From the IMG/VR virus record IMGVR_UViG_2778261225_000004: DNA of 20,622 bases. The stretch is one strand, 5' to 3'. A model generated the notes under the pieces. It saw nothing but the letters and a program-made list of their open reading frames with translations. It made no database searches and was not told the origin of the DNA. This DNA comes from a virus (lineage: Duplodnaviria > Heunggongvirae > Uroviricota > Caudoviricetes). Both the position numbers and the translations under genes were made by a program. Positions 4,951-18,085 of the stretch are shown in pieces (the stretch's first letter is position 1; each line of letters begins with the position of its first letter).

Positions 4951-5138
4951 AACTGAATCATTTCTCGTTTCTTCTTCTCCGGCTCCGGCATCTCCACTTC
5001 CTGCCCGGCGTCCAGAAATACCTGCTGACAGAGTCCGGGGTTGGCATCCAGCACCTTTTCGGTGACGCCCTGCGTCGTGCCGTAGTACCGGAAACAGAGC
5101 GAATCCACGGTGTCTCCTTCCAGTGCCTTCACTTTCAT
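4938..5138 (-). CDS. X: Tail protein gpX (LysM-like)
   Basis: From the internal ATG at 5138: MKVKALEGDTVDSLCFRYYGTTQGVTEKVLDANPGL matches remembered P2 gpX (67 aa, MKTFALQGDTLDAICVRYYGRTEGVVETVLAANPGL). ATG overlaps the L stop (ATGA). Confidence 0.8.
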   Translation of the reverse strand: MKVKALEGDTVDSLCFRYYGTTQGVTEKVLDANPGLCQQVFLDAGQEVEMPEPEKKKREMIQLWGE

Positions 5139-5632
5139 CAGCACAACTCCGCAAATATTCGCGGGCGGCACAGAATGTCAGAGATGGCCCAGCTCACATC
5201 ACGCCACAAATCCGATGTCTGTATATCCAGTGCGTCCGCCCGGCGGTCGCCCTTATCCGTTGTGTCCGCATCGCGGTAACGCTCCAGAATCAGGGCGCGT
5301 GTGGCGGTATAAACAGCATTGCGCCAGTGCCAGAGATTGACGCTTTCTCCGTTAATTACGGGTGCCGGAACATCGGCCAGCGTCTGATGGCCAGCCGCCT
5401 GCTGTTCCTGCTGCCATGCTTCCAGCTCGCGGGTAACGTGTGCCACCGCCCCGGTGGCGGTATGCAGCAGGCGGGAGGTGGTCACACGGCCCGGCAGTCG
5501 TATCGCCAGACGCAGCTCACGCAGCACAATATCCGGCCAGAATGCGCCCGCTGAAATACGGGTATCACCATCATCGGTATCGGTGATGTCGTCCTCTGCG
5601 GGTCCGGGGTTGGTTCTGGCAACCATACTCAT
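5138..5632 (-). CDS. L: Head completion / stabilisation protein gpL
   Basis: Track ORF 5138..5641 with LADVPA..INGESV..YERYR..ELWRD motifs as in remembered P2 gpL. Start set at the ATG at 5632 (AGGAG 8 nt upstream); the track GTG at 5641 abuts the Shine-Dalgarno. Confidence 0.85.
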   Translation of the reverse strand: MSMVARTNPGPAEDDITDTDDGDTRISAGAFWPDIVLRELRLAIRLPGRVTTSRLLHTATGAVAHVTRELEAWQQEQQAAGHQTLADVPAPVINGESVNLWHWRNAVYTATRALILERYRDADTTDKGDRRADALDIQTSDLWRDVSWAISDILCRPRIFAELC

Positions 5633-5734
5633 GGGGTTCACTCCTGAAAAAAATCGGGCGGTGGGTGCGCGGTGTAAACGGTCACGGAGTCAAACCGGAA
5701 CACCGCGTACGCCGCCCGCTGACGGGGTCAGTCG

Positions 5735-6535
5735 TTAACCGCGCTTCGCCTTCTGCGTCGCGGTGGTTTTTCGTGTTGCAGGCTTCCGCGTTGTCTTTTT
5801 ACTTTTGCTGCTTTCGTCCTGCGCCTGCTGTGCGCTGGCGTCTTCTGGTGCGGCTGCGGAATCGGCTTTTTTCAGGGCGCGGGAAAGGGTTGTAATCTCG
5901 CGTTTCACACCTGCGTTCTGGTTCAGGTGCATTGCTTCGCGCAGCAGCTTCAGTGACAGGGCCATGCTGTCCGCATCACTCAGACCACGACGGGCAAAGG
6001 CGCACGCCTTGCATAATTTGGCGCGCACTTCGTCCGGCATGTCCTGGTCGGTGACAATCTCCCGGAGTGTGTCCAGTGGTTCGATAAAGGCGGACAAATC
6101 CGCGTCGGCATCCGTCCCGGCCTGCGTCAGTACCGGGTTGCAGATTTCTTCGGTCAGCACTGTGGCAGCAGTACGGCCAAAGTTATCCGGCATGATGAGG
6201 TTGTGACGGACCACATACGCACCAATACGCAGCGCAAGCGGAAGATCGCCGCAGTCAATCGCCCACACCATCAGCGTGGCAATCACTTCATCCTGCTGCC
6301 CGCCGTCAGCCTCCAGCGTTCCCTCAATCCAGCCGGAAAAGTCCGGCAACAACTCTTTTTTGATGGCGGCTTTCGCGCTTCTGGCCTGTACGCCCTTAAG
6401 CCGGGCCTGTGCCAGACGCAGACGATACAGCACCTCTTCATGCGCGGTACGCGCGGCGTGGTCCACGCCTTCATTCGCCCGGCCTGTGCGCTGTGCCATC
6501 ACGTTCTGCCAGTGTTGCTGTGCAGGAGTAATCAT
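5735..6535 (-). CDS. M: Terminase small (endonuclease) subunit gpM
   Basis: 266-aa ORF MITPAQQHW..KKELLP..DMPDEVRAKL..QNAGVKREI with a basic C-terminal tail, collinear with remembered P2 gpM. Confidence 0.9.
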   Translation of the reverse strand: MITPAQQHWQNVMAQRTGRANEGVDHAARTAHEEVLYRLRLAQARLKGVQARSAKAAIKKELLPDFSGWIEGTLEADGGQQDEVIATLMVWAIDCGDLPLALRIGAYVVRHNLIMPDNFGRTAATVLTEEICNPVLTQAGTDADADLSAFIEPLDTLREIVTDQDMPDEVRAKLCKACAFARRGLSDADSMALSLKLLREAMHLNQNAGVKREITTLSRALKKADSAAAPEDASAQQAQDESSKSKKTTRKPATRKTTATQKAKRG

Positions 6536-6580: not shown

Positions 6581-7633
6581 TTAGCTGTCGGCGAACTTCA
6601 GGCCAGTGACCATCGCGCACTTGCCATAGTCTTCAACGACATAAGCGTCATTGATGGACTGGTAGGTGGCGATGCGGTTGTATTCCGGCTCGTCTTTCAT
6701 CAGGCGACGCATTGAACCTTTCTGCCAGTAAATCGACAGGTTGTTGAACGAGGTGATCAGCATCGTTGCATCCGGGAAGAACGGCGCAAGGAACACGCCC
6801 AGCCCGCCAATGGTGCGCGATGACAGGATGAGCTGCCCGGCGAGTAATTCCGCATTGAGATTCTGGCCGCTGATGCTGTTTAGCACGGGCAGACGCAGCG
6901 AGTTAAACAGGTTGCGCCCCATAATCACCACGAGGTCGTCAGCTTCCTTGTGCCATTCATCCAGCAGGGATGAACGCGCGTCCTGTACCAGTGCATCAGC
7001 GTTCGCATACTTACCCGCGTGCGCCACGGTGTTGTCCATGTTGCGGGAGGTCAGCGTCACGTCATTCATAACGCGTTCGCTGGCGTCGGTTCTGATGTGC
7101 TCCAGCCAGCCCACGTTAACGTCCTGAAGCAGCTTGTTGGTGCTGAAGTTGGACTCATCCGCGTGAGACGTGCCGTTGAAACCGATCATGATGCGGTCAA
7201 GCGCCACCTGTCGGGCAATCTGTGCGCTGATGCGGGACTGAAAATCAGGGTGTGCCGACCAGGCATCAAGCTGCGGATACGAAATAAACGTGTCGTAGTT
7301 CACCTGTTCGCACTGGTATTTGCGGTTTTTCAGATCAACCACGTTATTCGGGTTACGGCGTTTTGTGCCGTCATAACTGGTATTCGTGCGCGCAATTGGC
7401 CCGGTGGTATCCAGGAGGATTTTTTCGCCTTTCTGGTCGGTCACGCCGATCACGTTAATTCTTTTTGTAAATTCGGTGCTTTCCTTTGAGGCGTTTTCAA
7501 AACGCTGCTGTACCGAGGGTTCCACGGTAAATCGCGATACCAGTGCGGAAACCGGGATATTGTTAAGCGACGCCTGCTGCGCCATATAGCAACCCAGCTT
7601 GTTGCGGGTAATATCTGACATCACCAGATTCAT
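6581..7633 (-). CDS. N: Major capsid protein gpN
   Basis: 350-aa ORF with FTVEPSV, GFNG, VGWL, DLVVI.GR, AMLIT..NLSIY and YVVEDY motifs collinear with remembered P2 gpN (357 aa). The start could also be the ATG at 7621, which aligns with the P2 N-terminus. Confidence 0.95.
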   Translation of the reverse strand: MNLVMSDITRNKLGCYMAQQASLNNIPVSALVSRFTVEPSVQQRFENASKESTEFTKRINVIGVTDQKGEKILLDTTGPIARTNTSYDGTKRRNPNNVVDLKNRKYQCEQVNYDTFISYPQLDAWSAHPDFQSRISAQIARQVALDRIMIGFNGTSHADESNFSTNKLLQDVNVGWLEHIRTDASERVMNDVTLTSRNMDNTVAHAGKYANADALVQDARSSLLDEWHKEADDLVVIMGRNLFNSLRLPVLNSISGQNLNAELLAGQLILSSRTIGGLGVFLAPFFPDATMLITSFNNLSIYWQKGSMRRLMKDEPEYNRIATYQSINDAYVVEDYGKCAMVTGLKFADS

Positions 7634-7656: not shown

Positions 7657-8493
7657 TCAGAAGTCAGCCAGCTGGTCGGAGGCTGCGCCCGTTGCGGTGA
7701 ACCGGTTCTGCGGATCGCCGTCCTGCGTGCGCAGTTTTTCCTTCAGTGCTGCCAGCTCTGTGGTCAGTAAAGTGATTTTCTGGCTGTCCTGCTGATGGCG
7801 GGTTTCCAGCACATTAAAACGGTCGATAATGTCGGCCTGTGACGTTGCGACACCTTCCACCGCTTCCTGAATACGGGAGAAACTGGCGTCATCCGCTTTG
7901 CGGCCACGGCCAATAATCCCCATAACGCGGTTAAACCACTGGGTGCCTTCTTCCTGACGTTGTTCGGTGAGTTCGATAAGTTCTGACTCCATAGCGGCGG
8001 TAAACATCGCCACGTCTCCCTGCTGACAGTTGAATGTCATCAGTTGCATACGTTGTTGTGCCGCAAAGGCCAGACGTTCCGTGCCCAGGCTGGCAGGGGT
8101 GTCGGTCATTGCCAGCCCGCGCAGGTAAGGGCCTCCCGTGATGGTTGACTGTGGTTCCAGCTCAATACTGGAGTAAATTTTTTTACCATCGTTAAGCAGG
8201 GACATCATGCGAGCGGTCGGCTCAATTTCGGCATACAGTGCCGTGCGACCTGCCAGCGGGCCATCGGTTATGTCTTCGGTGCTCAACCCCACAACATCGC
8301 CCATAGCGGAAAACTCGCTACCGGGGAGTGGTGACAGGATGTGCTCAATATTCACACGTGCACCATAAACGGACGGGTTATAACTGGTGGCGGCAGCTTT
8401 CAGCATGTCGCCGTTGATTTCGCGCCCGTCTGCCGTTACACCGGAGACAGCCACGCGAAACTTTTTGCGGGATGTCTTTTTTTCATTAGCCAT
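7657..8493 (-). CDS. O: Capsid scaffolding protein gpO
   Basis: Track ORF 7657..8526; start moved to the ATG at 8493 (MANEKKTSRKKFRVAVSGV, compare P2 gpO MAKKVSKFFRIGVEG) with a GAGGGG Shine-Dalgarno. Contains VYG.R.N.EH and LAMTDTPASLGTE motifs. Confidence 0.9.
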   Translation of the reverse strand: MANEKKTSRKKFRVAVSGVTADGREINGDMLKAAATSYNPSVYGARVNIEHILSPLPGSEFSAMGDVVGLSTEDITDGPLAGRTALYAEIEPTARMMSLLNDGKKIYSSIELEPQSTITGGPYLRGLAMTDTPASLGTERLAFAAQQRMQLMTFNCQQGDVAMFTAAMESELIELTEQRQEEGTQWFNRVMGIIGRGRKADDASFSRIQEAVEGVATSQADIIDRFNVLETRHQQDSQKITLLTTELAALKEKLRTQDGDPQNRFTATGAASDQLADF

Positions 8494-8647
8494 AGTTTTT
8501 GCCCCTCTGACTGGTTCTTCAGTCATGATGGCAAAGCGTAACAGGCTGATACAAAGGTCTTTTGTTGTAAGAAAACGGCCAGAACAGGGGGTTAAGGAGA
8601 ACAGTTTCGCGCGCGGGTAATCTTCCTGTAATTACTCAGGGGGAGCA
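8494..8647. promoter_or_regulatory. Divergent late-promoter region between O (minus) and P (plus)
   Basis: 154-bp non-coding gap between divergently oriented morphogenesis operons, as in P2 where Ogr-dependent late promoters sit here. Contains a partial dyad TGT..ACA near TTGTTGTAAGAAAACGGCCAGAACA; no exact TGT-N12-ACA element was confirmed. Confidence 0.4.
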
Positions 8648-10399
8648 ATGATTCAGGACGCTTTTGTGCGCCAGCGTGCGCGGCAACTTTACTGGCAGGG
8701 TTATCCGCCCGCAGAAATATCACGTCTGATGGGAATAAACCCGAACACGATTTATGCGTGGAAAAAACGCGACCAGTGGGATGAAACGCCACCCGTGCAG
8801 CGTGTCACGCAGTCCATCGATGCGCGCCTCATCCAGCTCACTGAAAAACAGAATAAAACAGGTGGTGACTTCAAGGAAATAGACCTGCTGACCCGGCAGC
8901 TTAAAAAACTGCATGATGGCCAGCCGGATGCGACGGCCACAGGAAAGAAAGGCCGGGCGAAAAAACTCAAAAATCATTTCACGCCGGAACAGATTGCCGC
9001 ACTGCGGGAAAAAATCATCAGCAGGCTGGAGTGGCATCAGCGGGGCTGGTTTGACTCCCTGACCCTTTGCAGGGAAGCCGGGATACGTAACAGGATGATC
9101 CTGAAATCCCGACAGATTGGGGCGACCTGGTATTTTGCACAGGAAGCACTGCTGATGGCGCTGCGTGACGATGTGGCGCAACCTTACCAGCGTAACCAGA
9201 TTTTTTTGTCTGCGTCGCGTCGTCAGGCGTTCCAGTTTAAAAGCATTATTCAGAAGGCCGCGGCTGAAGTTGATGTGGAGCTGAAAGGGGGCGATAAAAT
9301 CATCCTCTCCAACGGCGCAGAGCTGCATTTTCTCGGCACTTCTGCTGCGTCGGCACAGTCCTATACGGGCAATTTTTATTTTGATGAATTTTTCTGGGTC
9401 AGTCGCTTTGCCGAACTGCGCAAGGTGGCTGGCGCTATGGCAACCCTCAGCGGACTGCGGCGCACCTACTTCTCCACGCCATCCACCGAAACGCACGAGG
9501 CATACGCCTACTGGAACGGCGACCGCTGGAACGAGAAAAAGGCCACGCATAAACGCCAGCGTTTTTCTGTGGACTGGAAAACGCTGCATAACGGGCTTAT
9601 CTGCCCTGACCGGACGTGGCGGCAAATTGTCACGCTGGAAGATGTGGTTAAACACGGCTGGAAACACACCGATATCGACGAAATTCGTGATGAAAACACC
9701 GAAGACGAGTTCCTCAATCTCTATATGTGTGAGTTTGTCCGCGAAGGGGAATCGGCATTTAACCTGAATATCCTGATTGGCTGCGGTGTTGACGGATACG
9801 ACGACTGGAAAGACTGGAAACCTTTTGCTCCCCGCCCGATGGGGAATCGTCCGGTATGGATTGGGTATGACGCAAACGGCAGCAGTGGCAACGGCGACAG
9901 CGGCGCTGTGTCCGTGGTGGTTCCTCCGGCTGTTCCTGGTGGCCGTTTTCGAACGGTGGAGACGCGACGCGTTCAGGGGCTGGAGTTTGAAGAACAGGCC
10001 AGAGTCATTGAAGAGTTCACGTGTCGCTACAACGTGGAACACATCGGCATTGATGTGACGGGCGGGAACGGGGAGGCTGTTTATCAGATAGTGAAGCGGT
10101 TTTTCCCTGCTGCTATTCCGTACACCTTCACGCTGTCATCCAAACGGTCGCTGGTACTGAAAATGCTGCAAATAATGCGTGCCGGACGGTGGGAATACGA
10201 TCGCGCCGAACGCGAGCTGGTCGCGGCCTTTAACGCCGTGCGTAAGGTGAAAACACCGGGCGGCTTTATCACTTACGAAACGGACCGCGCGAGGGGGATC
10301 AGCCACGGCGACCTTGCGTGGGCAACCATGCTTGCTGTCATTAACGAACCAATTGGCGGCGAAGGAGAAAACGAGCGTTTCACGGTTATGGAGTTCTGA
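8648..10399 (+). CDS. P: Terminase large (ATPase) subunit gpP
   Basis: 583-aa ORF with LYWQGY, KSRQIGATWYFAQEAL, NQIFLSAS, ELKGG, YFDEFFWV and GYDANG motifs collinear with remembered P2 gpP; GGGGGAG Shine-Dalgarno; stop overlaps the Q start (ATGA). Confidence 0.95.
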   Translation: MIQDAFVRQRARQLYWQGYPPAEISRLMGINPNTIYAWKKRDQWDETPPVQRVTQSIDARLIQLTEKQNKTGGDFKEIDLLTRQLKKLHDGQPDATATGKKGRAKKLKNHFTPEQIAALREKIISRLEWHQRGWFDSLTLCREAGIRNRMILKSRQIGATWYFAQEALLMALRDDVAQPYQRNQIFLSASRRQAFQFKSIIQKAAAEVDVELKGGDKIILSNGAELHFLGTSAASAQSYTGNFYFDEFFWVSRFAELRKVAGAMATLSGLRRTYFSTPSTETHEAYAYWNGDRWNEKKATHKRQRFSVDWKTLHNGLICPDRTWRQIVTLEDVVKHGWKHTDIDEIRDENTEDEFLNLYMCEFVREGESAFNLNILIGCGVDGYDDWKDWKPFAPRPMGNRPVWIGYDANGSSGNGDSGAVSVVVPPAVPGGRFRTVETRRVQGLEFEEQARVIEEFTCRYNVEHIGIDVTGGNGEAVYQIVKRFFPAAIPYTFTLSSKRSLVLKMLQIMRAGRWEYDRAERELVAAFNAVRKVKTPGGFITYETDRARGISHGDLAWATMLAVINEPIGGEGENERFTVMEF

Positions 10400-11445
10400 T
10401 GAGCAGAAAAAATAAAAAAGTGCGCATGAGTTCACGCATTGATCTCGCTGATGCGCTCAGGAAAGAATCATCGCTCAGTGCATTCACATTTGATGGTCCT
10501 TATCGCCTGACCGGGCATGACCTGCTGGACAATATGTACTGTGCTGATAACGGGCGATGGTATGAAACCCCGGTGGACTGGTACGGTCTGGCAAGAGCCG
10601 CCCGGCAAACGTCCTGGCATCAGTCTGCGCTTTACTTTAAGCGCAATGTATTGCTCGGTTGCTACATCCCGCACCCGCTGCTTTCCCGGCAGGATTTCTC
10701 GGCGCTGGCGCTGGACTGGTTTGTGTTCGGTAACGCATTCCTTGAGCTTCGGAGCAATATGCTCGGCGAACCACTTAAATTACGGCACGCACTGGCGAAA
10801 TACATGCGACGCGGAAGCGATCTTGAATCATGGTGGTATGTGCAGGATGGCAAGGACGCGTTTCAGTTTCGCCCTGGCAAAGTGTGCCACCTGATGAATC
10901 CGGACATTAACCAGGAAATTTACGGCATGCCGGAATATCTTGGCGCATTACTCTCGGCCAGCCTGTCTCATTCGGCGGACATGTTCAGAAAACTGTATTA
11001 CGACAATGGATCCCACGCCGGGTGCATCATCTACATCGGTGCAGCGCAGGTAAACCGCGAAAGCATGGACTCCCTGAAAGAAACGTTACAGGGTGCGCGT
11101 GGTGGTGGTGCGTTTAAAAACGTGCTCATCCATGCGCCCAACGGTGGCAAAGAGGGGGTGCAAATTTTGCCGTTCCAGCAGATCACCGCAAAGGATGAGT
11201 TCATGAATGTTAAGGCGGCATCCCGTGATGATGTGCTGGCTGCGCACCGCGTTCCGCCGCAACTGATGGGGGCGATGCCGGGCGAAAAAAGTGCGTTTGG
11301 TGATGTGGAGAAGGCCGCGCGGGTTTACGCAATTAACGAGCTGATGCCCGTCATGGAGGCCATGAAGCACATCAATGACTGGCTTGGCGAAGAGGTGATC
11401 CGCTTTAACCCTTACGCACTGTTAGACACCCAGCCCACATCCTGA
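10399..11445 (+). CDS. Q: Portal protein gpQ
   Basis: 348-aa ORF adjacent to P in the P2 arrangement, with a GGAG Shine-Dalgarno 5 nt before the ATG; size and position match P2 gpQ (344 aa). Confidence 0.93.
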   Translation: MSRKNKKVRMSSRIDLADALRKESSLSAFTFDGPYRLTGHDLLDNMYCADNGRWYETPVDWYGLARAARQTSWHQSALYFKRNVLLGCYIPHPLLSRQDFSALALDWFVFGNAFLELRSNMLGEPLKLRHALAKYMRRGSDLESWWYVQDGKDAFQFRPGKVCHLMNPDINQEIYGMPEYLGALLSASLSHSADMFRKLYYDNGSHAGCIIYIGAAQVNRESMDSLKETLQGARGGGAFKNVLIHAPNGGKEGVQILPFQQITAKDEFMNVKAASRDDVLAAHRVPPQLMGAMPGEKSAFGDVEKAARVYAINELMPVMEAMKHINDWLGEEVIRFNPYALLDTQPTS

Positions 11446-11471
11446 CGCGCTTCGCTTGTCTGCTGCTTCGC

Positions 11472-11496
11472 CGGGGCATAAAAAATTTATGCCCCG
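11472..11496. repeat. Perfect 11-bp inverted repeat (CGGGGCATAAA / TTTATGCCCCG, 3-nt spacer) just downstream of Q; candidate cos-associated or terminator hairpin
   Basis: Read directly from the sequence 27 nt after the Q stop. P2-like cos sites lie next to Q, but the remembered P2/186 19-nt cohesive-end sequence was not found verbatim. Confidence 0.4.
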
Positions 11497-11869
11497 ACTC
11501 TCCAGCTCCTGTATCAGTCAGATAATTTCACGACGCTTTCCTGCTTATTGCCATCATCGACAGTCAGACTCTTACGCAATCCCACCGCGTTGACTGCATG
11601 TTCTCGCCGTCTCAGTGCGATTTTGACGGCCTTACCTTTCACCCCATCAAATCAAAAGCCCTCACGTCTTTTTCACGCTCAGCGTGAGAAATACAGCCAT
11701 TCTGTTGTGTCGCTGCGACATCGTTCAGGGGATGCTATTTACCCCCTGAAACGCGGGCTGTTCCCCCGTCACCTGCGCGCAGAAAAAGCGCGTTTTTTTG
11801 TGCGCGCACGGATCCTTGACGGATCCAGCCGCCACGCGGGCCGGAAGGGTAAAAAGTTGTTCAAAAAAA

Positions 11870-11899
11870 TTGTGCAAATTTGTGCACTATTGTGCAGTA
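11870..11899. repeat. Three direct 10-bp iterons in helical phase (TTGTGCAAAT, TTGTGCACTA, TTGTGCAGTA)
   Basis: Exact 10-bp periodicity of TTGTGCA read from the sequence; preceded by palindromes CTGCGCGCAG and GTGCGCGCAC around 11773..11810 and a GGATCC-N5-GGATCC direct repeat at about 11811..11826. Confidence 0.4.
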
Positions 11900-12136
11900 T
11901 CATTACAGGATGTATATCGCTTCAAATGTGCTATATTTGGTCACATTAAGGCAGCGAAGAAGATGAACTTATCCTTATCGGTGTGACTACACGATATAGC
12001 CTCATCATTGTATGTGTATGGTAGGCGTGATAGCTTACCCCAACAGATTTGGGGGAGGTGGTTGACAACTGTAAAACCATCTCCATGTTAAAAGTAAATT
12101 AGTGATGTTTAAATGATTGAAAAAAGGAGACTAACT

Positions 12137-12181
12137 ATGACCGTACGCCGCACCTATAGCGAAGAAAACTGGGACGTTTAA
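12137..12181 (+). CDS. Leader micro-ORF (14 aa, MTVRRTYSEENWDV) with a strong Shine-Dalgarno
   Basis: AAAAAGGAG sits 8 nt before the ATG. The ORF is followed by CTCCTGTTTTTTT, which can pair with the Shine-Dalgarno region, then by a terminator hairpin. Not on the track because it is below the length cut-off. Confidence 0.25.
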   Translation: MTVRRTYSEENWDV

Positions 12182-12211
12182 CTCCTGTTTTTTTAGAGTA
12201 GTTTCAGTAGA

Positions 12212-12236
12212 ATGGGGGCTTTGGCTCCCATTTTTT
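12212..12236 (+). terminator. Intrinsic terminator-like hairpin (ATGGGGGC-TTTG-GCTCCCAT plus T5) 14 nt upstream of the 198-aa gene start
   Basis: 8-bp stem (one G-U pair), 4-nt loop and a T-run, read from the sequence; its position between a leader ORF and the downstream gene suggests an attenuator. Confidence 0.45.
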
Positions 12237-12249
12237 ATGGTTAAATACA

Positions 12250-12846
12250 ATGGATTTAGTTCTTTCTGCCCTTAGTTACATAGGGAAAATTTTTTCCAGT
12301 ATTTGGGAATCCAGCCCTACGTTTTATCCAGGTGCTGCGGGTGCGCTTATTGCAGTGATTAGCATACGAAATCAGAGAAAGACATCGCGCGAAAAAAACT
12401 CATTGGATTTTGAGGCTGCATATAAACGTAACAAGGACATAGTTGATGCGTGGTCAGAAGTGTTACGCATTCATAAGGATCGCCATAATTTTCCGATCGC
12501 TGATTGGGGAAAAGAAGAATATTCTCAAACAGATGGAGCAAAAGCATTAAAACTCATTTTTAATGAGTGGGAGCGTTGTGCTAATGCCGTGAATAACGGT
12601 TTGTATGATGAGCGGTATCTATATCGTGTTTATGGTTCTACCTTAATCTTTCTTGATGTCCATTTTGAACCTTATATGGAGGAGTGCCGCAAGCGTAATC
12701 CTAGGTTTTACCGTAACTTAAAATGTCTTGCTCTCCGATGGCGTGTTAGGCGAGCGTATGAAGATCAGGAAAACGATAGTAGGGAATACAAAAAACTGCT
12801 CAATGAGGCTAAGCGATTGGTAGACAAATTGCATACCAAATTCTGA
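12250..12846 (+). CDS. Hypothetical protein, 198 aa, single N-terminal transmembrane anchor plus a charged soluble domain; cargo gene at the P2 tin/old-equivalent position
   Basis: Clean ORF in an AT-rich island (visibly lower GC than the flanking phage genes). The N-terminus (FYPGAAGALIAVISI) is hydrophobic; the rest is Lys/Arg/Glu/Tyr-rich. It has its own terminator and is convergent to parR. No family was recognised from memory. Confidence 0.75.
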   Translation: MDLVLSALSYIGKIFSSIWESSPTFYPGAAGALIAVISIRNQRKTSREKNSLDFEAAYKRNKDIVDAWSEVLRIHKDRHNFPIADWGKEEYSQTDGAKALKLIFNEWERCANAVNNGLYDERYLYRVYGSTLIFLDVHFEPYMEECRKRNPRFYRNLKCLALRWRVRRAYEDQENDSREYKKLLNEAKRLVDKLHTKF

Positions 12847-12884
12847 TTTTGCATGCTTTGTGCTTCATGGCTTCTTGAATGGGA

Positions 12885-12918
12885 CATCAGGGCGAGTTCG
12901 CCCTGATGTTGTGTTATT
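12885..12918 (+). terminator. Intrinsic terminator (10-bp perfect stem CATCAGGGCG/CGCCCTGATG, loop AGTT, then TTGTGTTATT)
   Basis: Read from the sequence 39 nt after the stop of the 198-aa gene; the U-tract overlaps the stop of convergent parR. Confidence 0.6.
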
Positions 12919-13225
12919 CAGGAAATAACGCCCGGATATTTCCTGCCATCTGACTGGTTATCTGTGCGGTTGGTACTGGCTGTGACATGGGGCGTTCGGT
13001 CCTGGTTTGCGTCACTGATAACGCCTCATCGTCAGCCCATGCAGCCAGTCGGTAAGCCTCTGCCGGATTCATTTTCAGAAGTGCCAGCCCGGCCAGAAAA
13101 GCCACGCGTTGGCCGCTTTTGCGGGCTTCTGGTGTAAGGCTGTCCAGCCAGGCGCATGCATCGCCTTCGTTCTTGACGGCGGCGGGCTTCAGATAGAAAC
13201 TTATCCGTCTGGTTGGTGTCGTCAT
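12914..13225 (-). CDS. parR: ParR-like centromere-binding protein (type II partition adaptor)
   Basis: Internal ATG of track ORF 12914..13360, 5 nt downstream of the parM stop. The N-terminus RRISFYLKP..AWLDSLTPEARKSGQRVAFLAGLALL and the C-terminal IRALFPE resemble remembered plasmid R1 ParR (RTIAFKLNP..LTAGLALY..LRSLFPKE). Confidence 0.7.
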   Translation of the reverse strand: MTTPTRRISFYLKPAAVKNEGDACAWLDSLTPEARKSGQRVAFLAGLALLKMNPAEAYRLAAWADDEALSVTQTRTERPMSQPVPTAQITSQMAGNIRALFPE

Positions 13226-13229
13226 TGGT

Positions 13230-14189
13230 TTACTCCTTGTCCATTGCGTACAGCCCATTAACCAGAGCAAACTGTGGCACCCCGTCCGTGATGAAAGTCG
13301 CATTAACTCCGCAGGCTTCGCGGATAGCGGGTGCCACAATCTCCGCCCCGCCACCGACAACCATCACCCGCCCGTAACCCGAAAAAACCGCCAGCGCGCG
13401 GATCACGCGTTGTTTCAGTGTTTCTTCCTTTTCACGAATAACCGCCATCAGGCTGGCGTAATGCGCGTCATTGTGGATGTGCTGGCGCAGCCAGGCTTCA
13501 TCATGGCGATGTTCGATAATGGTATTGGCGATGTGGTGACTGGTACGCATACCGTTAGTGGCCATCACCGACAGTACGGCATCGGCCATCAGGGAAACGC
13601 CTACGTGTGGATCGCAAAACATCTGGCTGATACCTGCCAGTTGCCCCTGAACCTTTGCCACATCCAGCGTGGTTCCGCCCAAATCCACAATCAGCAGGGA
13701 TTCAAACGGACTCATGTCAGCCAGTGCCTTAAAGCCAGCCGGAATGGATTCAGGCATAACCCGTACGTTACGGATAGTGAATGCTTCGCCGTTCTGGTAC
13801 TCCACCGGGCGCATGACGTTCGCTTTTTTGCGGTTGATGTTGGCCATGTCCGGCTGTGCGTTTGTGTCGAAATATTCGCTCAGTGGCAGGGTGACAACCA
13901 CATCCACTTCCTGTGGTGTGATGCCTGATTTGACCAGCGCGTGGTGAATGGCGATTACATTCACATCGCTGTACTGGTATTGCGTGTCGGTCGTCTGGAC
14001 AAAGCGATCGCTGACCGGATCAAAACCATAGCGCACGCCATCAAGCATGTAGTTCGCGGGCTGCGTGCCACCGAACGGCGCAGACCATTCCGACTTGAAG
14101 CTGTTCGGGCTGATGGCGTTGCGGCGTTCGCCGTTCTCAGTCCATGCCAGCTTGATGTTGGTGGAGCCGTCGTCGATACAAATTTTCAT
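13230..14189 (-). CDS. parM: ParM/StbA-like actin-like segregation ATPase
   Basis: 319-aa ORF with actin-fold motifs collinear with remembered R1 ParM: CIDDGSTNIKLAW, YSDVNVIAIHHAL, VMPESIPAG, LLIVDLGGTTLDV, GVSL, VMVVGGGAE and a C-terminal LVNGLY. Confidence 0.85.
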   Translation of the reverse strand: MKICIDDGSTNIKLAWTENGERRNAISPNSFKSEWSAPFGGTQPANYMLDGVRYGFDPVSDRFVQTTDTQYQYSDVNVIAIHHALVKSGITPQEVDVVVTLPLSEYFDTNAQPDMANINRKKANVMRPVEYQNGEAFTIRNVRVMPESIPAGFKALADMSPFESLLIVDLGGTTLDVAKVQGQLAGISQMFCDPHVGVSLMADAVLSVMATNGMRTSHHIANTIIEHRHDEAWLRQHIHNDAHYASLMAVIREKEETLKQRVIRALAVFSGYGRVMVVGGGAEIVAPAIREACGVNATFITDGVPQFALVNGLYAMDKE

Positions 14190-14225
14190 GTAGCTTTTCC
14201 TTATGTTGATTAATTAATCGGTTAC

Positions 14226-14260
14226 AGGATTTTTAAATCCCGCTTTTGCCTGTTTTGTGC
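14226..14260. repeat. Repeat module A (hairpin GGATTT..AAATCC followed by CGCTTTTGCCTGTTTTGTG) in the parM upstream region
   Basis: Read from the sequence; similar in composition to module B 74 bp away; lies in the 76-bp gap between the A stop and the parM start. Confidence 0.3.
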
Positions 14261-14265
14261 GCGCT

Positions 14266-17088
14266 TCATATATCGCGGCGTGTTTTTTGCTCATTTACGG
14301 GATTTGTGAGTCCCGTTTCTGTCTGTTTTTTGTTTCCACTGGTCAGGCTACCCCGCAGCAGGTCTGCTTTGCGGTGGGCGCGTTCAGTGGTTTCACTGAT
14401 TCTCTGTGCGTGCTCTGCGTCACGGATGGCGCGCAGCATGTCAGAAAGCACGGTAACGGGGGTTTTCATGGTGTTCTGGTCCTGCTGAAGTGTGGATGCC
14501 AGACGTGCGGCGGCTTCGGGGTCTGATGCCCCCAGTTGTTCCAGATAGCTGGCGACCGGGTTATGGCGGATCTCTGTGCTGCTTACGCCGTGATTACGGC
14601 TCAGGCGCTGCCAGAGCTGCGTGATTCGGCTGTCCGGGCGGGTATCCGGTTTGCGTACAATTTCAAATCCCTGCGGTGCAATGATGCTGCCGTCAACGTA
14701 CAGGCTGCCGCCCCGTAACAGGTGCTGCATCTGCTGTTCACCGATATGCAGGCCGAGAGATTCGGCAGATTCCCGCCATTCTTTAGCGAGTAATTCGTGG
14801 TTATCAGGCAAAGGCCGCTGCTGTTTGCGGCTCTGTGTCCAGCTCTGCATTTCATCACTGCTGTTTTTTGCCTGTTTGTCACGAAGCGAACGCATCAGCG
14901 CCCGGCGTTCGTGCCGTTTCAGTGAGCGCATCCATTCGTTCACTTCAACGCCATCAGGGAGCTGCGGCCACGGTGCTGGCCGTTCTTCCGGCTGTTCTGT
15001 CCCGTTGTTGTTCGTTTCCTGTACACGGGGACAGTTATTGCCACGAGTCCAAGGGGCGGCAGGGCCGCCCTGAAGGTCAAAACCATTTTCGCGGGCGCTG
15101 TCTTCCGCTTCCGGTTTGCGTCTTACCAGCTTCCAGTTATCCGGATGCGTGCACACACGGGAGGATTCCCCGATGAGTGGTGACCAGATCCCGTAAATCT
15201 GTACGCTCTGTTCGCCGTAATCGTTCAGCTCATCGGCGAGGTCGTAGGCGGTGCGAATCAGGTAGTCTTTGCGTGGAACAAGTACGCCGCCCTGTTTCTC
15301 TATGTAGGTGGCAAAACATCCTGCATCAGCGGCAGCGAGTACCGCATCCATTGCGTCATCCTTCAGCCGTTGCGGGCCTTCCGGGTTGCGTGCCATCTGG
15401 CTGGCAAGGCGGCGGAGTTCACGCCACACCTGACGGGAGGGGATGCCAAAGAACTGGAACTGGCGGACCCGGTGAAGGCGTGCCCAACCGATGGCGCGCT
15501 CCACGCTCTCGGCCATTGATTTTCCGGTTTCGTGGTCAACGCGTGGTTTGCCTGTTTTCGGGTCGATGCCATCCACGGCGCGGCTGTCCAGGTTTTTTCC
15601 GATGTAGGTGGCGATGTAGCTGGTTGGCGTGCCTTTTGAGCCGTCGACATACTCCGCCTTAAAGCGCGGAGTAATATCATCGCCCAGCTCGTGACGATCT
15701 TCCTGAATGGCAATATCGCGGGTGTGGGACACAATGGTGTCGATTTCTTCCGGATGAGCAAAGACCATCATATGCCAGTGCACGGTGCCGTCATGGTGAG
15801 GCTCCACCGTGCGGATGCCATACCAGCGAAGACCGTCGCGGTTCAGTTTCTTGCGGACCGCCGCAAAAAACGTGTTAACCAGGTAATCGCTGGAGTCGCG
15901 CATGGTGGCCCCGTTCCATTTGGGATTCGGATGACCGTTCTCTGTTGTGGCGTGGTATTTTGACGGGCAGGTGACAGTCAGAAACACCGCTTTGTCGCCA
16001 CGGGCTTCGGCCAGAAGTTCCAGCCCCTTCATGGTGGCCATCATTTCTGCCTTACGGTGAACCGGGTTACTTACTCCCGCGTAATACACCGTCTCGAGAT
16101 CAATCGTGAACCCGTCTTCATTTTCCAGCATGAAACTTTTCAGGAAATCGCGTGTTTTCTCGCGCTGTGCGCGAAACTCGCTTAACGCGTCCTGGCTCAG
16201 ATAGGGTGATGTTTTTCTGGAAACCAGACAGGCGGCGCGGAGTTGTTCTTCTCTCCACTCGCAACGTAACAGCCACAGTTTGCGTTTCCACCATTCTGCA
16301 CAGGTCAGGCGAAGGATTGCGCCCGGCAGCAGCTCCGTGTCCGGTTCGTTCCTCCGGTCTTTGTCTGTTGTAAGTGCGTCATAATGTGGAGGCATGGCGT
16401 GCAGGTGTAACGCCATGCGGGCCAGCATCTGATACGCCTTCAGCGTTACATCCATGGTCAGTTCGCCATCGGTCGCGCCAAAGCCATCGCAGAGTTTTTC
16501 GAAGGTGCTGCTGAACATCGCCGCCGTCATGGTGGCCAGTGTCTGTATCTGGTGTTTGTTGAGCTGCGGCAGGTAAAGCAAATCGTCCAGGCGTTCGCGT
16601 CCGGCAAGGGAGCGATAACCCTGTGTCAGCCAGCGGTGATCGGTGCGCTCCAGACGTTCGAATATTTTGCGCAGGTTTCCGCGCGCGTAGCGTTCAGCCT
16701 GCCAGTTCTTTTTGCCTTTCTGACGATCGGCTTCCTGTTTTTTGCGCAGGAAGGAGAGGTGGCGAATAAGCGGATCGCGCAGATAGGACGGCAGCAGGCG
16801 CAGCGAGGCCATGGCTTCATCCACCGCGCCGCGTGCCTGTTTTCTGGCATCTCCTGCCAGTGTGATGGTTTTGTCCTGTTTTTCCTGTGCGTCCAGGCTT
16901 TTATTAATCAGGTTGCCCAGCGGCGTTGCGGAGAACGCCGCATCAGCCATTTCCTGGCGGCGCTCGTTCTCTACCCGGTAGGCATCCAGCCAGGAGGAAA
17001 GCGCGGATTCAGGAGCGGGGATCCCCGTTCCTTCACGCCCCACTGCGTGGCGCGGTTGTTGCCAGTCCCTGATGTACTCTGCCGTCAT
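14266..17088 (-). CDS. A: Replication initiation protein gpA (rolling-circle replication endonuclease) with an extended C-terminus
   Basis: 940-aa ORF at the P2 gene A position (downstream of the early operon, next to the cos-proximal cargo region). The size and a VHWHMMVF-type motif fit the P2 gpA family; about 180 aa longer than remembered P2 gpA (761 aa). Confidence 0.88.
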   Translation of the reverse strand: MTAEYIRDWQQPRHAVGREGTGIPAPESALSSWLDAYRVENERRQEMADAAFSATPLGNLINKSLDAQEKQDKTITLAGDARKQARGAVDEAMASLRLLPSYLRDPLIRHLSFLRKKQEADRQKGKKNWQAERYARGNLRKIFERLERTDHRWLTQGYRSLAGRERLDDLLYLPQLNKHQIQTLATMTAAMFSSTFEKLCDGFGATDGELTMDVTLKAYQMLARMALHLHAMPPHYDALTTDKDRRNEPDTELLPGAILRLTCAEWWKRKLWLLRCEWREEQLRAACLVSRKTSPYLSQDALSEFRAQREKTRDFLKSFMLENEDGFTIDLETVYYAGVSNPVHRKAEMMATMKGLELLAEARGDKAVFLTVTCPSKYHATTENGHPNPKWNGATMRDSSDYLVNTFFAAVRKKLNRDGLRWYGIRTVEPHHDGTVHWHMMVFAHPEEIDTIVSHTRDIAIQEDRHELGDDITPRFKAEYVDGSKGTPTSYIATYIGKNLDSRAVDGIDPKTGKPRVDHETGKSMAESVERAIGWARLHRVRQFQFFGIPSRQVWRELRRLASQMARNPEGPQRLKDDAMDAVLAAADAGCFATYIEKQGGVLVPRKDYLIRTAYDLADELNDYGEQSVQIYGIWSPLIGESSRVCTHPDNWKLVRRKPEAEDSARENGFDLQGGPAAPWTRGNNCPRVQETNNNGTEQPEERPAPWPQLPDGVEVNEWMRSLKRHERRALMRSLRDKQAKNSSDEMQSWTQSRKQQRPLPDNHELLAKEWRESAESLGLHIGEQQMQHLLRGGSLYVDGSIIAPQGFEIVRKPDTRPDSRITQLWQRLSRNHGVSSTEIRHNPVASYLEQLGASDPEAAARLASTLQQDQNTMKTPVTVLSDMLRAIRDAEHAQRISETTERAHRKADLLRGSLTSGNKKQTETGLTNPVNEQKTRRDI
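14299..14338. repeat. Repeat module B (hairpin CGGGA-TTTGTGAG-TCCCG followed by TTTCTGTCTGTTTTTTG) inside the 3' end of gene A
   Basis: Read from the sequence; a direct-repeat partner of module A. Homopolymer lengths in this stretch are uncertain. Confidence 0.3.
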
Positions 17089-17763: not shown

Positions 17764-18085
17764 GGTGTGGCCCCTTGTGTAGTAAGTTGTGAAAACTCAC
17801 CATCCAGAGCTGCGAAACTGTGGGTGGCGAGACGTACGAGGTTCGCAGTACCGGCTACACAAGAACCCGGCCCGACCGAAGTCGGCCCCGTACGCCCCGC
17901 CATAATTCTGACGCGAAAAAAACGTGGCAATACAGTACGCACAAAAAAACCGCTGGCGCGGTTGTGCGCTTGTGTAGTCAGCAGGCTGCGAAACCCGGCA
18001 CCCGTTTTGTGAGGTGCAGCGGAAATGTAACCTGACTGATTGCGGCATGGCAAGCGGTTTTTTTGTGTGTGCATGTTCTGGTTTC
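17764..18085 (-). other. 322-bp non-coding block inside the early operon with repeated CTTGTGTAG and CTGCGAA(A)C modules (two direct, one inverted) and stable hairpins; candidate structured RNA or protein-binding/ori-like element
   Basis: No credible ORF on either strand (track ORFs here are Arg/Pro-rich or low-complexity). Motif CTTGTGTAG at about 17774 and 17969 with its reverse complement at about 17855; CTGCGAAAC at about 17810 and 17986 with GTTCGCAG at 17841; GC-rich hairpin with a C-UUCG-G loop on the minus-strand transcript at about 17866..17890; CCGCTGGCGCGG preceded by A7 at about 17943..17962. Confidence 0.3.

Follow-up and report, generated by a model that had tools for sequence, protein, structure and literature searches.

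Introduction

Phages of the P2 family package their DNA from monomeric circles, and the satellite P4, which has little in common with P2 beyond the cos site, relies on the P2 terminase. The cos sites of P2, 186 and P4 are the closest described counterparts of the element considered here, and in P2-like phages cos adjoins a known variable hotspot of defence and other cargo genes. Outside this family, cosB of phage lambda carries the gpNu1 sites R3, R2 and R1 and an integration host factor (IHF) site, I1, beside the nicking site cosN, and these sites set packaging specificity. The pac site of phage P1 contains clustered GATC-containing hexamers, and its cleavage is controlled by Dam methylation. 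Here we analyse a group of palindromes and phased repeats in a 20,622-nucleotide stretch of phage DNA (IMG/VR record IMGVR_UViG_2778261225_000004), hereafter called the window. Positions 11737–11896 of the window are probably the complete cos (DNA-packaging) site of a P88-like prophage of the P2 family, and the stretch 11771–11899, which contains the repeats, would be its right arm (+1 to +123).

A previous sequence-only reading had placed these motifs between the cos region and a cargo gene. It had proposed that the repeats are a phased protein-binding array, naming partition centromeres, replication iterons, terminase sites and repressor sites as options, and had considered a link with the cargo and with ParR.

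Results

The window was recognised as a P2-family prophage from the listing of its open reading frames (ORFs) and Pfam scans, its orientation being the reverse of the P2 map. BLAST placed it among the P88-like phages (genus Xuanwuvirus, Peduoviridae). The repeat region has the 3′ end of the portal gene (Q) on one side and right-end accessory and replication genes on the other, which is the position of cos in P2.

The putative 19-nt cohesive-end segment (cosN) occupies positions 11755–11773 and reads GGGCTGTTCCCCCGTCACC on the plus strand, or GGTGACGGGGGAACAGCCC in the orientation of P2. It matches the reverse complement of the annotated left cohesive end of P2, GTGCTTTCCCCGCCTCGCC, at 13 of 19 positions and stands in the same place and orientation downstream of the portal gene. 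The cohesive segment of the Klebsiella phage 3LV2017 is an intermediate form (CTTGCTCCCCGCCTCGCC), and the published cohesive end of phiRSA1 starts with GGTGAGGCGGGG. We infer the cleavage positions from the homology with P2, 186, P4 and other Peduoviridae. The right arm is numbered from the first base after this segment (+1 = 11774). Another candidate for the cos segment, at 11822–11840 (CCGCCACGC), resembles the 186 end and lies close to the ends of the P884B11 record (near 11851). It was rejected, as the P884B11 record is a circle opened at an arbitrary point and cos is anchored at 11755–11773 by the alignment of 54 cos regions described below. With cos placed there, the palindromes and repeats lie inside the cos site and not, as had been thought, between it and the cargo.

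All the motifs listed in the sequence-only reading were recovered, none displaced by more than two bases. Direct reading gives the palindromes CTGCGCGCAG (11773–11782) and GTGCGCGCAC (11800–11809) on either side of A5-GCGCG-T7 (11783–11799), followed by two GGATCC hexamers with 5 nt between them (11810–11815 and 11821–11826). A motif search gives three copies of TTGTGCA on the plus strand with an exact spacing of 10 bp (11870–11876, 11880–11886 and 11890–11896), and Tandem Repeats Finder reports a period-10 array at 11866–11896. The number of TTGTGCA copies in the window is unremarkable (4 against 5.2 expected). Their arrangement is another matter: TTGTGCA is the sole exact 7-mer of the window that occurs three times at a spacing of 9–12 bp, and such a phased triple appeared in none of 2000 first-order Markov simulations of the window.

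To compare this arrangement across lineages, one genome per species was scanned by portal-protein alignment, which gave 80 loci anchored on the cos 19-mer alone. Together with P2, 186, P4, three further phages and two E. coli loci, they yielded 54 non-redundant cos regions from Enterobacterales, Aeromonas, Burkholderiales and other groups. The regions have a common layout, in which a conserved octamer at +1 to +8 is followed by a hairpin or inverted repeat, a T-run with a box, a spacer, an A-run and three distal boxes. The boxes stand at +24 to +26 (often also at +32 to +35), +96 to +98, +106 to +108 and +116 to +121. An exact 5-mer was present at least three times within +85 to +140 in 25 of the 54 regions, compared with a mean of 0.8 in shuffled sequences and 1 of 54 in a control window.

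The sequence of the box depends on the lineage. GTGCA is found in the window and in Klebsiella, Brenneria, Kosakonia, Pectobacterium and Aeromonas, and ATGCA in P2, 186, P4, Erwinia, Buttiauxella and Scandinavium. Further classes are TGACGG in Acidovorax, GATGC in Agitococcus and CATGCG in one groundwater gammaproteobacterium (locus L145). Within every class the proximal box matches the distal boxes. The top distal 5-mer recurs in the proximal window of its own locus in 36 of 52 loci, whereas 2000 permutations averaged 17.4 and never exceeded 26. About five classes with matching proximal and distal boxes are, as a pattern in the alignments, the signature of a group of sites recognised by a single protein that has drifted in specificity.

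The sequence-only reading had proposed a comparison with the cos flanks of P2 and 186, and this comparison revealed the same architecture there, with ATGCA as the box. In P4 the ATGCA boxes are at +25, +97, +107 and +120. They occupy the short interval that separates the end of psu from cos, in which no promoter is required. Phage 186 carries the same boxes, with a terminator on one side and cos on the other. The architecture is found in phages without ParMR, namely phiT5282H, 3LV2017, P2 and 186, as well as in P4, which also lacks it. BLAST matches to the P2 right arm in E. coli genomes extend only to +29, where the core ends; the lack of conservation in the middle spacer stops them there, and they are uninformative for the distal boxes of the P2 lineage. 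Judged by all the features that define such sites at the sequence level, the site in the window is an ordinary member of the P2-family cos sites.

The conservation of the site within its own lineage was examined using 80 IMG/VR loci with an identical portal protein, which gave 68 distinct P88-like sequences. In these the cos 19-mer is invariant, and the majority-base fraction is at least 0.94 for every element up to +123 (11896). It amounts to 0.97–1.00 for the boxes, 0.999 for the T-run with the proximal box and 0.989 for +84 to +96. At +124 the fraction falls to about 0.5, and 30 distinct downstream junctions begin there. The stretch with the repeats is present in about 1148 of 5426 complete E. 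coli genomes (BLAST). When 60 entries were sampled from 1149 matching E. coli records, 58 were full-length (P88-like) matches, and these end at query positions 157–160 (+121 to +124). The single exception is a record with the same downstream cargo, in which the whole query was matched. Because conservation collapses right after +123, the third repeat appears to be the last stretch that P88-like phages cannot lose. It would be the outer edge of an essential cis element, so that the variable cargo hotspot would start at the very next base (11897).

One P88-like record, IMGVR_UViG_2681813261_000011 (2870–2924), switches to an IS1 end (GGTAATGACTCCAACTTATTGATAG...) two bases past the cos 19-mer, and its contig stops inside the insertion sequence. 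This insertion would sever the right arm and should render the prophage unpackageable.

A P88-type cos was also found in an element of about 12.5 kb located between gcd and hpt in E. coli mip270_05 (NZ_CM132658.1, 4411344–4423858). The element encodes two integrases, an Icd-like protein, a toprim primase, an Ogr/Delta-like protein, a P2-type capsid protein and MazEF. Neither terminase nor portal nor tail genes were found in it, and the mip270_05 genome contains no P88-like prophage. The major capsid gene of this satellite is its own P2-family version, with about 35% identity to gpN of the helper. When the satellite was compared with the whole window, the only strong DNA similarity covered positions 11737–11897 (80% over 162 nt). 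Its copy has kept the cos 19-mer, the T-run with its box and the three TTGTGCA repeats intact, and it has lost the GGATCC pair and the perfect palindromes. As a natural deletion analysis, the satellite suggests that the functional site extends from about 18 bp left of the 19-mer to 123 bp right of it. A weak similarity elsewhere (69% over 207 nt) connects an early gene in the Ash-family neighbourhood of the window (17823–18017) with the Icd-like region of the satellite (8332–8523).

The left arm of the site, TTTACCCCCTGAAACGCG, lies at 11737–11754. The similarity with the satellite begins at its first base, and a C-rich, TACCCCC-like element recurs at this place in related cos regions. On the right side, a repeat finder merges the GC palindromes and the A/T runs next to the cohesive-end segment into one imperfect inverted repeat with 93% complementarity, TGCGCGCAGAAAAA (11774–11787) and TTTTTGTGCGCGCA (11795–11808), which spans both GC palindromes and A5-GCGCG-T7. 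Its first octamer, TGCGCGCA (+1 to +8), is kept in the GTGCA-class phages. P2, P4 and 186 have a different hairpin and T-run where the window has this inverted repeat. The T7 run and the proximal box TTGTGCG follow on the plus strand (11793–11804, the box at +25 to +31), and a T-run followed by the box of the lineage is found in most of the 54 cos regions. The hairpin or inverted repeat, the T-run and the box near +25 that characterise the P2-family core are thus all present at +1 to +31, in a sequence unlike that of the P2/P4 core.

The perfect palindromes CTGCGCGCAG and GTGCGCGCAC are peculiar to the window copy, and most relatives have GTGCACGCAC. The A5-GCGCG core and the exact palindromic forms are specific to the lineage or to the copy. 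Outside the P88 lineage, conservation of the palindromic cluster is limited to TGCGCGCA at +1 to +8, the T-run with a GTGC box and a GATC at +38; the rest of what had been listed as palindromes is lineage-specific.

The GGATCC-N5-GGATCC element (11810–11826) contains two Dam sites, at 11811–11814 (+38) and 11822–11825 (+49). Of the 18 non-redundant members of the CCCCCGTCACC cos clade, 14 have a GATC exactly at +38, whereas 2 of the 36 other regions do. The second GGATCC is restricted to the P88 lineage, and both copies are missing from the satellite. That methylation of the GATC at +38 might control the use of cos is pure speculation.

The middle spacer (11827–11862, GCCGCCACGCGGGCCGGAAGGGTAAAAAG...) is a degenerate version of a GC-rich dyad known from other lineages, for example CCGCGCCAG-NN-CTGGCGCGG. 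This dyad occupies the middle of the right arm in P4, 186 and other loci, in the ATGCA and GTGCA classes alike. Perfect inverted repeats whose arms measure 6 bp or more were found at +48 to +75 in 15 of the 54 cos regions, compared with a mean of 2.6 in shuffled sequences. P2 is without the GC-rich dyad, and the only inverted repeat of the window at +48 to +75 is GGATCC/GGATCC. The A7 tract (11863–11869, plus strand) stands right before the distal boxes, as an A-run does in most GTGCA-class regions. The distal array itself (11870–11896, plus strand) has its three TTGTGCA boxes at +97, +107 and +117, and its last base, 11896, is the last conserved one.

Direct reading and the repeat finder also give the 15-bp palindrome TCACGCT-C-AGCGTGA at 11673–11687, outside the block shared with the satellite. 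Of 79 P88-like loci, 71 have it unchanged; in the other eight the symmetry is lost, with no compensatory change. A long-range inverted repeat (11735–44/11847–56) was dismissed, as it shows no covariation among relatives, and weak matches of phage 434 to the repeat region (E = 0.04) were treated as chance.

The cos sites of P2, 186 and P4 resemble that of the window in several respects. The 3′ end of the portal gene is adjacent, the 19-mer is GC-rich and homologous, and a hairpin or inverted repeat with a T-run and a box is followed by three boxes at about +97, +107 and +117 to +120. Furthermore, the site is common to helper and satellite, and it borders a variable hotspot. The differences are the GTGCA box in place of ATGCA, 6 of 19 cohesive positions that differ from P2, another hairpin sequence, and two GGATCC/Dam sites where P4 and 186 have the GC dyad. 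Within the P88 lineage the whole 160 bp are conserved contiguously; what P2 and P4 have in common is limited to the core and the short boxes.

Lambda cosB offers an analogy in which several short repeats stand on one side of a nicking site, over about 100–120 bp, with a bendable segment between the proximal and distal ones. The window site shows no sequence or protein homology with the lambda system, and gpM belongs to PF05944. The lambda R sites are 16 bp long, whereas the boxes of the window are direct repeats of 5–7 bp in a 10-bp phase; on reading the cos arm of the window we saw neither R-site-like 16-mers nor a clear IHF consensus. P1 pac may serve as a lead only, with short repeats that flank the cleavage point and, in the window, a positionally conserved GATC at +38 and a second one at +49. 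Unlike P1 pac, cos does not belong to a headful system, and neither the satellite copy nor most other lineages have the GATC.

The genes around the site were assigned from the ORF listing and Pfam. On the minus strand lie gpL (5138–5641), the small terminase subunit gpM (5735–6535; PF05944 Phage_term_smal, E = 5e-37), the capsid protein gpN (6581–7633) and gpO (7657–8526). The plus strand carries the large terminase subunit gpP (8648–10399), which is the cos nuclease and ATPase, with the Pfam domains Terminase_6N and Terminase_6C and a Terminase_5/HTH_23 match at residues 6–63, and the portal protein gpQ (10399–11445; Phage_portal), the 3′ end of whose gene marks the Q side of cos. Beyond the third box, the variable cargo is a DUF4760 gene of 198 aa (12250–12846, plus strand). 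It is followed on the minus strand by a ParR-like gene (12914–13360), ParM (13230–14189) and the replication protein gpA of 940 aa (14266–17088). The order gpO, gpP, gpQ, the region of interest, variable gene(s), ParMR and gpA is the P2 layout.

The Phage_GPA domain covers residues 179–503 of gpA, which leaves a C-terminal extension of about 440 residues with no Pfam match. Just upstream of the DUF4760 gene, a 14-codon ORF (MTVRRTYSEENWDV) with a strong Shine–Dalgarno sequence, AAGGAG, is followed by a terminator-like hairpin (12138–12182 and 12209–12234), and together they resemble a leader peptide or attenuator arrangement. A perfect 12-nt inverted repeat, ACATCAGGGCGA/TCGCCCTGATGT (12884–12909), separates the DUF4760 gene from the convergent parR gene and is probably a bidirectional terminator.

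Discussion

The likely function of the boxes, as we read the comparative data, is that of a cosB-like terminase recognition array, which would be bound by gpM or by the helix-turn-helix of gpP. The terminase (gpM and gpP) would recognise one proximal box, consisting of the T-run and TTGTGCG at +25 to +31, and the three distal TTGTGCA boxes. On bent DNA, the proximal and distal boxes would be occupied by a gpM oligomer, possibly together with the N-terminal helix-turn-helix of gpP. The distances from the proximal to the distal boxes are 72, 82 and 92 bp, or about 7 to 9 helical turns, which would suit an oligomer sitting on one face of bent or wrapped DNA, and the A7 and T7 tracts flank the boxes. 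Terminase bound in this way would position the gpP nuclease for staggered cuts at 11755–11773, in analogy to lambda cosB beside cosN. Should packaging follow the logic of lambda, the cargo, ParMR and gpA, which lie on the side of the boxes, are predicted to enter the capsid first. We infer the identity of the box-binding protein, the requirement of the distal boxes for packaging and the positions of the cuts. The general idea of a phased protein-binding array put forward in the sequence-only reading is supported, with terminase sites among its four options. Its link to the cargo or to ParR is not: the motifs proved to be conserved cos-flanking sequence of P2-like phages, independent of the cargo.

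Several observations weigh against this interpretation. The conserved cos core of P2 and P4 is given as 55 bp (Ziermann and Calendar, 1990) in papers citing that work. This core includes the proximal box and excludes the distal boxes, and because of this the latter may be dispensable or only stimulatory. It should be noted that we found no description of the distal array in the accessible literature on P2-family cos sites, a scope that does not extend to the original 1990 characterisation. The covariation statistics are inflated by shared ancestry, since only about five motif classes are independent. Among the public records of P88-like phages, none has its ends at the putative cos. In P2, the third box (TTGAATGCA; P2 33424–33480) overlaps the likely −35 element of the old-tin promoter, and an opportunistic secondary use of this box in transcription is possible there. 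Finally, gpM diverges fastest (29–64% identity, against 41–79% for gpP), yet all three proteins compared follow one phylogeny with no discordant loci, and gpM and gpP are for this reason not separable as the reader of the boxes. Searches of PDB sequences with gpM and gpP gave no relative among the solved structures.

The boxes might instead bind some other phage or host factor that acts at cos in bending, end protection, injection or cosQ-like termination, and not in the recognition of the substrate. The A- and T-tracts that flank the boxes would suit such a role. So would the further conserved elements of the right arm, the GATC at +38 and the GC-rich dyad at +49 to +72, and also the packaging of monomeric circles, in which one cos serves both initiation and termination. 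A host factor is hard to reconcile with the fact that E. coli is host to phages with ATGCA (P2, 186 and P4) as well as GTGCA (P88-like), the box following the lineage of the phage. Moreover, satellites that borrow only late proteins of the helper keep the boxes, which points to a late protein encoded by the helper, and terminase is the obvious candidate. We therefore regard such a factor as unlikely.

The chances are smaller still that the distal boxes are a promoter or operator of the hotspot cargo. The annotated old-tin transcript of P2 does start about 30 nt downstream of the third ATGCA, where the overlapping TTGAAT fits a −35 element, and TTGTGC-N17-TATATC can be read at 11890–11918 of the window. 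However, a consensus scan of 11400–12300 found no promoter-like site. In P4, 186 and phiT5282H, what lies past the boxes is either a terminator or a convergent gene, reached at its 3′ end, with no outward transcription, and the boxes are equally conserved whatever the cargo or its orientation. A promoter also leaves unexplained the matching proximal box at +25 and the fixed distance from cos.

It is very improbable that the TTGTGCA repeats are a parC-like centromere bound by the ParR of the window (12914–13360) and serving ParMR. Helically phased short direct repeats near a parMR operon are typical of type II centromeres, ParM and ParR are encoded only 1–2.3 kb away, and both ParM and the repeats are conserved within the P88-like phages. 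Unlike type II parC, however, the array has three copies only and is not upstream of parM; it is found past the 3′ end of parR, at a distance of about 1 kb and with a gene of the opposite strand in between. The same three boxes stand equally far from cos in phages without a ParM homologue and in the satellite without ParMR, among many elements that lack this system, and P2, 186 and P4 have the same architecture with ATGCA instead. No iteron array was found in the 76 bp between gpA and parM (14190–14265), which contain only a small palindrome, GGATTTAAAAATCC.

Homologues of ParM among phages were found only in the P88-like phages and phage D6. ParM is encoded next to gpA, at 95% identity or more, in 14 P88-like phage records, and the only other phage match is the phage-plasmid D6 (47%). 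By its distribution, ParMR is a backbone feature of the P88-like genus and not cargo, which hints at plasmid-like maintenance at some stage.

As improbable as the centromere is the view that the repeats and palindromes are due to chance or are iterons of a replication origin. The count of the 7-mer is no higher than expected, but its phased triple was never obtained in the simulations and the position of the array is conserved across genera. Replication of P2 starts within gene A, and gpA-type phages share the boxes with satellites that have a different, primase-type replicon.

Returning to the terminase recognition array, we propose a wider generalisation tentatively, at somewhat less than even confidence. 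All Peduoviridae and their satellites may share an extended packaging signal of one proximal and three distal boxes of 5–7 bp, at fixed distances from the cohesive end (+25; +97, +107 and +117). Its lineage-specific code would be read by terminase and would decide which satellites a helper packages (ATGCA for P2, 186 and P4; GTGCA for the P88-like phages and their satellites), and the exact inner boundary of the hotspot of anti-phage cargo would be defined by the third box of the signal.

For the window, these results remove a false lead, as the repeats are in our assessment neither a centromere nor a regulator of the cargo, and they settle the probable anatomy of the region, with cos at 11737–11896, the cut segment at 11755–11773 and the variable cargo from 11897 onwards. 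The four-box architecture would provide a rule for the prediction of cos sites and hotspot boundaries in prophages. For cosmid delivery vectors based on P2 and P4, the corresponding design rule would be to include the DNA up to about +125. The recognition of cos by terminase is poorly characterised in the P2 family, and the four-box model bears on the specificity with which helpers and satellites are packaged.

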